From: a virus
Taxonomy: Duplodnaviria; Caudoviricetes
Virus record (IMG/VR): IMGVR_UViG_3300028048_000001
Location: 128,001-192,000 of that record
Length of the DNA stretch: 64,000 bases
Direction: 5' to 3' (one strand)
Within the stretch, counting starts at the first letter, position 1, and every line of letters starts with the position of its first letter. The position numbers were made by a program, and so were the translations under genes. Under the pieces are notes generated by a model that was not told the DNA's origin, did not search any database, and was given only the letters and a program-made list of their open reading frames with translations. Positions 54,899-58,571 of this stretch are shown piece after piece.

Positions 54899-57800
54899 TT
54901 ATCTTTTCCAAGATTTAAGCATTTTTGAATGTTTATATCTCATATCTGCTTCTTGCTGTTTACCAAGATTAAATGATTTATGATAATCTCCAGTAAGATA
55001 TCCAGTAACTCTGCGAAGTCTTTGAATATCAGATGATCCACAAATTGGACAATTATCATTAATTTCATCAGTATATCCACAATTCATACAAGTATCAGAT
55101 GGAACATTTATTGCAAAATAAGGAACATCCTTATCCATAGCATAAATAATAATATCTTCTAATGCTTCAAGATTATTTTTAGCAGATGATTCTATTTCTA
55201 CATATGTAATACAACCTGCAGAAGAATATCCTGTTAATTGAGATTCTATATCAATTTTTTCAAAAGGATCAATTTCTTTCCATACAGGAACATGAATACT
55301 ATTCGTAAAATAAAGTTTATCTGATACATTAGGAATAGTTCCATATTTTTCTTTAAACTTAGTCATGGCAGTATATACTAATGTTTCTGCAGGTGTATAA
55401 TATACACCAAAATTAAGTTTATATTTCTGTTTAAATTCTGCACATCTATCTTTAAATAATTGTTCAATTCTTTTAGCTAATTCCATACCTTTTGGTTCAG
55501 TATGATCACATCCTATAAGAATTTGAAGAGTTTCTGCTAAACCAACTTGACCTAATGCTAAAGTTCCATGTTTAAGTGCAGATCTTGTATCTTTACCATC
55601 ATAACCAAGCATTACTTTATTACCATACATGAATTTAGCACATTCTGCTGGTTGAGCACAAATCCACTCAAATCTTTCAATCAATTCATCTTTAGCATCA
55701 TTAATATAATGATCAAGAAGATTCATAAATTCTTCAATAATATCAGAATTTTTCTTTAATGATTCTTCTTTTGCCATCATAGCGATAGTTGGCATAATTA
55801 CAGTAACAGGACAAATATTTCCTCTTCCATCTTTAGTTTGTGGATTAACATCTGGATCATGATTTATATCATAACCATTTACTGTCCTACACATTTTACC
55901 CTTTATCACTAAAGGAACTGACTATATCATCATTTAAATATGGGATTTAAATGTCCTCCGCTTCGAATATGTGCTTATCTCATATTCTACTCTCTTACAT
56001 TCATCAGAGATAGTCGATACACTTTCAATCAAGAATAGTAATTTTATTATCATTAATATTAATGATAACTCCCCATTTACTATATATACAATATTCAATT
56101 CTCTTGATTGCTTAGCACGGTCTCAACTTTAATAATATTTTATTATTGCATAAATAATAAAGTCCTAACCGTTAGCAGCTTATAATTAAGCTACACCCAT
56201 TAAGCATGGTTCAAAGGATTTTATATGGGCTGTAGTTCTAGACTTACCCATAGTTGCAAATTCTGTTTTTGGATCATTTGGATCATATCCAGCATTGCCA
56301 GACCAATCTACATTTGCATAATTAGGATATAATCGTTTAGCTGTACACTTAACAGCTAATTTAAATATATCATAATTAGGATCTCCTGGATGCTTATTAA
56401 TGCCATTTTTTAATTTATAAATACAACAAGGAAATATTGGAGTTCTATGAACTTCTCCAATTCCTTTAATAGATTCTTCTAAAAGAGCAATAGATATCAT
56501 TCTTCCTTCTGGAAGAGTACATGTACCATAGTTAATTGAGGAAAAAGGTCAAATGTTATCTTATAGACTTTTTATTCTATAATTCTTACAATTTCTTGTA
56601 AGGTCGGCGTACATATTCACCATGGTATTTTACTACTTTAGGTATGGGTACTCTTGGATGGATTATTATATTCTTCACCATCTACGCTCTACAATGTCAG
56701 TTTACCTTTTAAATTAAACTGATTATCTCGGTATTAACATAATATATTAAATTTAAATTAATATATCTTAGCCTTCACCGATTTTACCCAATTCATCTTA
56801 TATATTTCTATATAAGCGGCCACCAATTTAGCTGAGATAATTTTATTATCTTATAGACTTTTTATTCTATAATTCTGGAAATCGCTTTCATACTCTACAT
56901 ACCTTTATTAGTAGAGATACGTCTGTCAATTCAGACCAGTTTGGCATAAATTTTTACCCTCGTTTAACGTTAGGTTTGTCTGCGATCAACTCAGACTCAT
57001 ATAGTGCTATACACTATAGTATTCGACACTCGTGGGAGTATTATATTTATTCAACTCCTATGCTCTACAATACTAATTATCCTTACGTAATATAATTAGT
57101 TATCTCGGTATTGTCACAAATAATTTTATATTCTTCAAATTTTCTTCTTAAAAATAAATTTTGTGCAAAATTATATATATTATTTTGTGAGTTTTACCGA
57201 TTTTGCCGAATTAATCTAATATATTTCTATATTAGTGGGCCCTCATTTGACCCGATCTACTCTGCAGTGTGTTAAGATTATGGTACATGGCTTCTATAGA
57301 TTGATAAACTTCTCTTTTTGTCATATCCATAGCATAATTATATGCTTTAGAATATTTCTTATACCAATCATCTTCTATAGAAATTTCTTTAATATTTTTA
57401 TTAATAGGGTTTTTATATTTATCTATTAATTCTTCTTTATTTTCTACATATTTTAATCCATCTCTAAAATGTTTATTAAAGCTTTTTCTTACAAATGGAA
57501 CCATTGTCCAGTCGAGGTGCGTGGCACTAACTCCCATTACTCTTTATATTTCTATAAAGTCTGACTATATCTTCTTTATTCTATTGAATAAAGTCTCGCA
57601 CTTGGGTAATAGATATTTTATATCTACTATGTGGTCTTGATACCACTCCTACTCCCTTACATTCATCAGGGATAGTCGATACATTAAGGAAATAATACAA
57701 TATATTTATTTACTCTTTTTCTATAATTATTATTTCTAAAAGTTGAAGATTTCCTTAACACGGTATTACCATATCTATATTTATATAGACTTAGGCTCTC

Positions 57801-58571
57801 TTACCACTTTAATCTTTCGATTTGGTTGACCGTTAGCAATTTATTATAAAAATAAATCACACCCTATATCTATAGGTTCACGAGATTTTACTTCGGCAGA
57901 GTATATTATTTACCGAATTCCTCTAGACTTTGAATTTGAAATATAACTGCTACTAATTGAAAAGCAGTACTTACTGTCTGTGGAGGTCTAATATCATTTT
58001 TTGAATTTCCTTTTAATGCAAACCCTTTTTCAAATAACATATCAAAAGGAACACTCATGCAATTATGCATTCCTACTACATATCTGTCTAAATCATGAAT
58101 ATATACTATATTATTTCTATGATTATCAGCATGTCTTTTAGACATATATTCATCTAATGCTAATTCTTTCATTATAGCATTATCTGCTTCACCAATTCTT
58201 CCACCAAAACTTGCTTCATCTATATTAGCATTCTGATTTTGAACGTTAGACGCAGCAAGTTTTTCTTTAATAATTTTTCTAATATTTGACTTTTTTTCTC
58301 TTTCTTTAGTACGTTCATTTCTATAAGTAATATAAGCTCTTGCTACATCTTTTCTTACATCCATAAGAGCTTCTTCTACTTTGTCTTGAATTTGTTCTAC
58401 AGAAAGATTTTCATTTAAATCATAAATATTTTGTGCAATTTTTCCAGCTTCAATAAGAGCTTCTTCAGTGCATATACCATCTACAGCATTAAATGCTTTA
58501 ATAACAGCAGTTGATATTTTATTTTTATCAAATGATTGCATTGATCCATCTCGTTTTTCTACATAAAGCAT
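54899..58571 (-). CDS. nrdD: class III anaerobic ribonucleotide reductase, 5 exons (58571-57912, 57534-57250, 56837-56830, 56549-56246, 55891-54899), 749 aa after splicing
   Basis: ATP-cone, YIHDLD, HNC; splicing restores FGGVSATH, RSGSQLPFSSINYG and MGCRT; YTPAE, CxxC..CxxC, RRVTGYL; exons total 2250 nt. Confidence 0.92.
55892..56245 (-). mobile_element. group I intron nrdD-I4 (354 nt, no ORF)
   Basis: P1 augggU/Gcccau, P10 uguag/cuaca, R gacua, S gauauaguc, terminal G; splits MG|CRT. Confidence 0.9.
56550..56829 (-). mobile_element. group I intron nrdD-I3 (280 nt, no ORF)
   Basis: P1 gcU/Ggc, P10 acc/ggu, P7 ga-gcgua/uacgcc, terminal G. Confidence 0.85.
56838..57249 (-). mobile_element. 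group I intron nrdD-I2 (412 nt, no ORF, apparent terminal A)
   Basis: P1 gggU/Gccc, P10 ucuca/ugagg, P7 ga-gcaua/uaugcc. Confidence 0.8.
57535..57911 (-). mobile_element. group I intron nrdD-I1 (377 nt, no ORF)
   Basis: P1 uucggU/Gccgaa, P10 ggagu/acucu, R gacua, S aagauauaguc, terminal G. Confidence 0.9.

Follow-up and report, generated by a model that had tools for sequence, protein, structure and literature searches.

An 8-nt candidate exon between two mobile group I introns in the nrdD gene of a gut phage

Can eight nucleotides stand as an exon of their own in a phage gene, and if so, would they be a regulatory device or only a by-product of two introns settling close together? The question is raised by the anaerobic ribonucleotide reductase gene (nrdD) on the minus strand of a 64,000-nt stretch of phage DNA, positions 128,001 to 192,000 of IMG/VR record IMGVR_UViG_3300028048_000001 (the window), where it is followed by the gene for its activase. 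The source record, 274 kb long, is complete and has terminal repeats, and across 14 studies DNA of this phage turns up in gut samples of cattle and sheep. An earlier note, made from the letters of the window, had placed the 8-nt sequence TCTCAGCT at 56830-56837 between two ribozymes, here called introns I2 and I3, with exon 2 ending in ...AGA TCG GGT and exon 4 starting with A CCT TTT, all of which is exact in the sequence. We consider it probable that TCTCAGCT is a genuine exon between two independent mobile introns and is spliced at these sites, and that it is a by-product and not a regulatory device.

Read on the minus strand, with slashes at the proposed splice sites, the locus runs ...AGT AGA TCG GGT / caaatgagggccc...aaaatta / TCTCAGCT / aaattggtggccgc...cattTG / A CCT TTT TCC. 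Removal of both introns gives ...GGT TCT CAG CTA CCT..., which encodes SRSGSQLPF, and the five joined exons then amount to 2250 nt (749 codons and a stop) free of internal stops. Omission of the 8 nt breaks the frame, which runs SRSGTFFLN to a stop after five codons, just as the earlier note had said of skipping. The note had also held that the 8 nt restore SRSG-SQL-PF with a Gln conserved in NrdD, and this agrees with some 200 NrdD relatives, which have exactly three residues at the site with Gln and Leu invariant, and with solved NrdD structures, which keep the Gln even in so distant a case as T4. All 80 IMG/VR relatives read SRSG-[N/C]QL-PF (in two, an in-frame TAG takes the place of the Gln codon), and 121 database proteins divide into NQL (117), CQL (3), and GQL (1). 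Among intron-less relatives, Thomasclavelia phage TR-TP2 has SRSG-NQL-PFTSINYG, and at the DNA level the nearest read GGT TGC CAA CTT CC. As an aside, in records L046 and L048 (at ~3285) the codon for the invariant Gln is an in-frame TAG (SRSGN-stop-LPF), which fits phages that would decode TAG as Gln. Judged from sequence comparison, the micro-exon is very probably real as gene anatomy.

The strongest comparative evidence comes from strain variants, which were retrieved by looking up the products of the open reading frames (ORFs) of the window in public assemblies and whose exons are 97-100% identical. Five I2-less strains (L186, L188, L189, L191, and L194; exons 97-98% identical to the window) read ...AGT AGG AGT GGA TCT CAG CT and continue directly into I3, the 8 nt being simply the plain end of exon 2. 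Strains without I3 read ...AAAATTTA/TCTCAGCT GCCCTTT (L214 and L199) or TCTCAATT GCCTTT (L216); L214 is a DNA metagenome assembly, so the I3-less allele exists as DNA. The double-positive allele matching the window recurs in 12 or more contigs, which come from several independent assemblies (ENA, JGI, Logan), and close strains thus hold the I2+I3-, I2-I3+, and I2+I3+ alleles, with I2-I3- among more distant relatives. Because each intron occurs alone in close strains, I2 and I3 are separate, independent insertions. They appear to be two autonomous introns and not one nested or twin element, and the micro-exon would exist only in the I2+I3+ allele. A different jumbo phage of 262 kb (L005) carries an I3 homologue at exactly the codon position of I3, and its pairing P1 covaries (CAGCU/GGCUG). 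The Logan contig L199 (2137 nt) keeps I1 and I2 and is missing both I3 and I4; it may be a further DNA allele or partly spliced RNA.

The same series of alleles bears on the simplest objection, namely that the arrangement is an assembly artefact or that nrdD is a decayed pseudogene. An exact 31-nt repeat at the 3' ends of I2 and I3 does break short-read assembly graphs, but I2-TCTCAGCT-I3 recurs across the assemblies named above and the exons are intact, so we give this explanation next to no weight. The repeat itself (56846-56876 and 56556-56586) lies in the 3' domains of two introns that are elsewhere only about 70% alike, which suggests gene conversion between neighboring introns.

Alongside the presence or absence of I2, the adjoining exon changes. 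Where I2 is present, the final 8 nt of exon 2 show synonymous recoding (AGGAGTGGA to AGATCGGGT), with five of the eight last exon bases before I2 differing from the I2-less alleles (57250-57258), including a Ser codon changed from AGT to TCG, while elsewhere in exon 2 the alleles hardly differ. The recoding provides both the partner for P1 and the splice-site U, and it has the look of co-conversion over a short tract or of selection for splicing.

Are I2 and I3 complete ribozymes? A core pattern search recovered 96 IMG/VR loci of their family, and BLAST ties it to the terL intron of Lactobacillus phage JCL1032 and to introns of Staphylococcus and crAss-like phages. RNAalifold on 28 members gave P2, P3, P4, P6, P7.1, P8, P9, and P9.1 with 54 pairs, 46 of which show compensatory changes; P7, which crosses P3 as a pseudoknot as it does in every group I intron, has a third stacked pair that is G-C in 45 members, A-U in 33, and mismatched in one. 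P2, P4, P6, P7, P7.1, and P9.1 are complete in both introns, as is P3 in I2, with one mismatched P3 pair in I3. The few mismatches in P5, P8, and P9 fall, in I2, where insertions were trimmed from the alignment, and both introns agree with the conserved columns; I2 matches every core column conserved at 90% or more save for two changes that it has in common with I3. Both introns carry the guanosine-binding G-C pair beside a bulged A (GaGC[G/A]UA / UA[C/U]GCC), a layout equal to that of C262-G312, A263, and G264-C311 in Tetrahymena (PMC10020454). Between P7 and P3' the P7.1 helix covaries strongly (columns 180-184/212-216), which would give the family an IA-like layout, and in I2 additional hairpins follow P3'. 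The Rfam group I model matched neither I2 nor I3, whether at the gathering threshold or with E allowed up to 10; since it also missed I4, whose splicing is seen in RNA, the model does not cover these introns.

Each intron also has a guide of its own. The I2 guide pairs without a break with the ligated junction GGGU/UCUCA (9 bp, -15.4 kcal/mol, chance ~0.002), and the I3 guide GGUGGC pairs with GCU/ACC over 6 nt (chance ~0.008). The U.G pair of P1 at the cleavage site is present in both (U57250.G57240 in I2; U56830.G in I3), and P10 has five pairs in I2 (UGAGG/UCUCA) and three in I3 (GGU/ACC). These computed pairings bear out what had been proposed for the 8 nt, namely that they serve I2 as P10 partner (ucuca/ugagg) and I3 as P1 partner (gcu/ggc). 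Together with strain alleles, cores, and covariation, they speak for an exon between two ribozymes, as the earlier note had it, and I2 and I3 appear to be complete group I ribozymes, each with its own guide. In the mechanism that we propose, two mobile group I introns of one phage family would have inserted 8 bp apart in the invariant SRSG-xQL-PF motif. I2 would hold exon 2 (GGGU) and the first five bases of the micro-exon (UCUCA) on a single 9-nt guide, and I3 would hold the last three (GCU) and exon 4 (ACC). The two introns could then be removed in either order to yield the same product, SRSGSQLPF.

This bears on a further proposal of the earlier note, that the two introns, sharing the 8 nt, must splice in a fixed order or in a coupled way, which could act as a switch on NrdD expression. 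Both guides do depend on these 8 nt, with an overlap of up to 2 nt between their extended forms, and two folded cores could hardly dock 8 nt apart at once; it is plausible on steric grounds that both catalytic cores are unable to grip the micro-exon simultaneously. Nonetheless, the micro-exon pairs of each guide are unchanged once the other intron is removed. Close strains carry I3 without I2 or I2 without I3, so each intron can stand and be removed alone, and an obligatory order is unsupported. Neither a sensor nor any further conserved element came to light, nothing else indicates regulation, and similar tandem layouts occur in unrelated genes (e.g., terL of L168). We therefore regard a switch as highly unlikely and return to the view of the 8 nt as a by-product.

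What weighs against productive splicing at these sites concerns first the 3' end of I2 and then the RNA, protein, and metagenome searches described further on. The last base of I2, A56838, on which the earlier note is silent, aligns with the terminal G of its relatives (GATAACAAAATTG versus GATAATAAAATTA), and essentially all family members have G there; the tail reads GATAAC-AAAAYTG/exon in the family and GATAAT-AAAATTA/TCTCAG in I2. I3 ends in G (G56550), and I2 does not. The A is found in all 17 I2 contigs (10 haplotypes), over two tail lengths (UU/UUU) and three downstream contexts, and the G-binding pair is unchanged. In the I2-less alleles the base before TCTCAG is an A as well (GGA), the same letter as the odd last base of I2. 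In Tetrahymena, a change of the terminal G to A blocks exon ligation, and terminal-G mutants shift to nearby G residues. This terminal G is the ligand of the guanosine site in P7 (PMC10020454). An A-U pair in P7 that sets I2 apart from I3 was considered as compensation for the terminal A and was rejected; it is not the binding pair but sits two layers away, and 33 relatives with the same A-U pair still end in G. A specificity switch of the guanosine site, reportedly described by Michel in 1989 and by Been and Perrotta in 1991, is said to need a change of the G-C binding pair to A-U. To our knowledge, no other way is known for a group I intron to function with A as its last base, whereas the binding pair of I2 is still G-C. 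The 3' splice site of I2 would therefore be marked only by the 5-bp P10, a P9.0 of 2-3 bp, and homology with relatives (in P9.0, UU or UUU pairs with AAA after P7; I3 has UU with GA there). With so few marks at a non-canonical site, exon ligation by I2 would be either unusually tolerant or inefficient.

Could I2 simply end elsewhere? If it ended at G56832 (...ucucaG/CU), the exon would shrink to CU and the protein would read SRSG-L-PF, in frame and two residues shorter. This would regain a canonical terminal G, keep the frame, and resemble the move to a nearby G in the Tetrahymena mutants. However, it would lose Ser-Gln, including the Gln that is invariant in the relatives and in distant solved NrdDs, and it would leave P10 with two pairs instead of five and P9.0 with none. 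The G lies 13 nt past the GATAAY box as against 4-10 nt in the family, and I2-less sister strains encode SQL from the same bases. We judge this alternative very improbable. Other shifted splice sites were rejected, as none gives a U at position -1 and a terminal G while retaining the Gln; G56850 as acceptor is in frame but adds four residues, and P10 is absent.

Turning to expression, I4 is excised exactly in contigs of metatranscriptome runs X15 and X16, both from one sample (joint 55891->56246, 354 nt skipped). This exact removal means that nrdD is transcribed, and at least I4 spliced, in the rumen. Across four RNA runs, no contig spans I2 or I3 in spliced form; the 31-nt repeat breaks k-31 assembly graphs at this place. 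The main strain of the X15/X16 sample belongs to the I2-less type and has an endonuclease ORF in I3, and its RNA contig departs from the window at 56758, exactly at the ORF site of L188 and L189. The RNA contig without I4 continues unspliced from exon 4 into I3, in a strain whose I3 has the ORF. One X16 contig stops at 57257 and is compatible with the I2-less allele (AGTAG/GAGTGG...), and it is not counted as evidence; the end of an X16 contig at 56549 is at most a weak hint of a branch at the 3' splice site of I3. A 51-aa junction peptide found no SGSQLPF protein among 5.8 billion, only intron-less CQL/NQL relatives. The spliced junction is likewise absent from the metagenome and viral contigs searched, and the pattern GGGT-(0-20 nt)-CTACC had no match in metagenome contigs. 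A pattern with N at the terminal position gave only three chance matches to unrelated DNA in metagenome contigs. In IMG/VR, the I2 5' end gave only seven chance matches, and the exact junction of micro-exon and I3 gave none, close records being possibly outside the searched set.

The explanation that has to be taken most seriously accepts the anatomy but holds that I2 cannot join its exons on account of the terminal A, so that little or no NrdD would be made and I2 would be a selfish intron in a dispensable gene, the host having its own reductase. The unchanged G-binding pair beside an A fixed throughout the I2 contigs fits this, as do the terminal G of the nearest relatives in other genes and the absence of a spliced I2 product from the RNA, protein, and metagenome searches. 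Nevertheless, the I2-bearing exons have kept their coding capacity. No stop or indel occurs in the exons of any strain, and differences between I2-bearing strains are overwhelmingly synonymous (33 synonymous versus 4 non-synonymous codons in one comparison, 20 versus 0 in another), which argues for a working nrdD in these strains. This argument is blunted to some degree, as I2 copies diverge by only 0.25-1.7%; part of the exon diversity is therefore possibly older than the spread of I2, and the low ratio of non-synonymous to synonymous change (dN/dS) may partly be older too. The core of I2 is without decay, and UCUCA and the recoded P1 flank are kept while the A persists over both tail lengths and all three contexts. 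On balance, we find a defective I2 rather unlikely. From the comparative evidence we infer splicing of I2 and I3 at these sites in the window phage, and productive splicing at the terminal A is likely there. A bolder formulation is possible and is offered only tentatively: I2 may be a naturally working intron that ligates after a terminal A despite an unchanged G-binding pair, with nothing but P9.0 and a strong P10 to hold its 3' site, and the double-intron allele may hold the shortest phage exon (8 nt) yet described.

The remaining parts of the locus are set out in Table 1. Gene lists based on ORF calling split nrdD into four ORF fragments. The boundary of exon 1 is set by I1-less strains (in L186, 57913 joins 57534) and by a relative that reads EFGGVSATH.

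Table 1. Coordinates of nrdD exons, introns, and guide elements in the window
Feature	Coordinates	Strand	Remarks
nrdD exon 1	58571..57912	minus	ATP-cone and N-terminal part; 3' end GAA TTC GGT; from ORF list
Intron I1	57911..57535	minus	377 nt; I4 paralogue (repeats in common); missing from L186, L191, and L193 strains
nrdD exon 2	57534..57250	minus	3' end ...AGT AGA TCG GGT (SRSG), last base T57250
Intron I2	57249..56838	minus	412 nt; group I, without ORF; last base A56838
I2 internal guide UGAGGGCCC	57245..57237	minus	GCCC with exon-2 GGGU (P1); UGAGG with micro-exon UCUCA (P10)
I2 P7 strands	57065..57059 (GaGCAUA) and 56948..56943 (UAUGCC)	minus	G-C binding pair after bulged A
Micro-exon TCTCAGCT	56837..56830	minus	8 nt; Ser, Gln, and two bases of Leu
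Intron I3	56829..56550	minus	280 nt; group I, ORF-less in window; ends G56550
I3 internal guide GGUGGCCG	56824..56817	minus	GGC with micro-exon GCU (P1); GGU with exon-4 ACC (P10)
nrdD exon 4	56549..56246	minus	A CCT TTT ... ATG GGT; starts A56549; 3' end fixed by RNA joint
Intron I4	56245..55892	minus	354 nt; before MG/CRT cysteine; excised exactly in metatranscriptome contigs
nrdD exon 5	55891..54899	minus	Glycyl-radical domain

A second intron family is represented by the paralogues I1 and I4, which have blocks of 35 nt and 22 nt in common, and I4 is located between ATG GGT and TGT AGG, adjoining the active-site Cys of MGCRT. In other strains I4 holds a GIY-YIG endonuclease ORF (L186, 2912-3664). 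In L188 and L189 (1412-2248), the P5 loop of I3 holds an ORF for a 278-aa endonuclease (phrog_4645, weak LAGLIDADG match), whose insertion point corresponds to window position 56758.

How does this locus compare with known systems? Phage genes with group I introns include td, nrdB, and nrdD of T4 and orf142 of Staphylococcus phage Twort, the last with three introns. In the jumbo gut phages called Jug, nrdD falls into four fragments, among them pieces of 230 and 91 aa (PMC12880540), sizes that resemble those of exons 1 and 2 here. The multi-intron genes of T4, Twort, and Jug have in common with our locus ORF-less or endonuclease-bearing group I introns, genes of nucleotide metabolism, nrdD as a hot spot, and splicing in metatranscriptomes; in the literature on such genes we found no exon this short and no intron ending in A, and a literature search for a phage micro-exon returned no report. 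Organelles also have micro-exons flanked by group I introns, and a close parallel is found in placozoan mitochondria, where two introns of group IB leave a micro-exon of only 1 nt in cox1 (Osigus et al. 2017, PMC5436844). In both cases a second self-splicing intron beside an existing one isolates a tiny exon between two separate cores, and the micro-exon restores a conserved residue and the frame. However, the placozoan case concerns animal mitochondria, subgroup IB, and RNA-seq intermediates, whereas the nrdD case concerns a phage, IA-type introns, and 8 nt, was reached by sequence comparison, and shows intron presence and absence still polymorphic among strains.

Within phages, the introns of JCL1032 terL, Staphylococcus, and crAss-like phages are 75-87% identical to the I2/I3 family over the P6-P7-P7.1 core and have the boxes GTAGAGCRTAG, AATATAATA, and GATAAAAAG and the GATAAC tail in common with it, but they are single insertions in other host genes and end in G. 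Tandem pairs also occur elsewhere in the family. The terL gene of L168 (5575-6260) has two tandem introns around a mini-exon of ~20-23 nt, AATCGTGCCAATATTCTGAT(AAT), which encodes the Walker-B stretch NRANILII; as in nrdD, a highly conserved motif there is interrupted twice within a few codons by ORF-less group I introns. In L119, two family members are ~95 nt apart. New in the nrdD locus are the exon size of 8 nt, the complete series of intron-presence alleles, and the conservation of the terminal A.

Gene callers and standard RNA-family scans miss the structure of nrdD wholly, which affects the annotation of metabolism genes in jumbo phages. The strain series, with every combination of introns, is a natural experiment in how introns pile up in one motif and how the flanking exon is recoded. 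If I2 does not splice, it would be a selfish intron that silences a phage gene while spreading. If it does splice, the terminal G of group I introns would not be absolutely required in nature.

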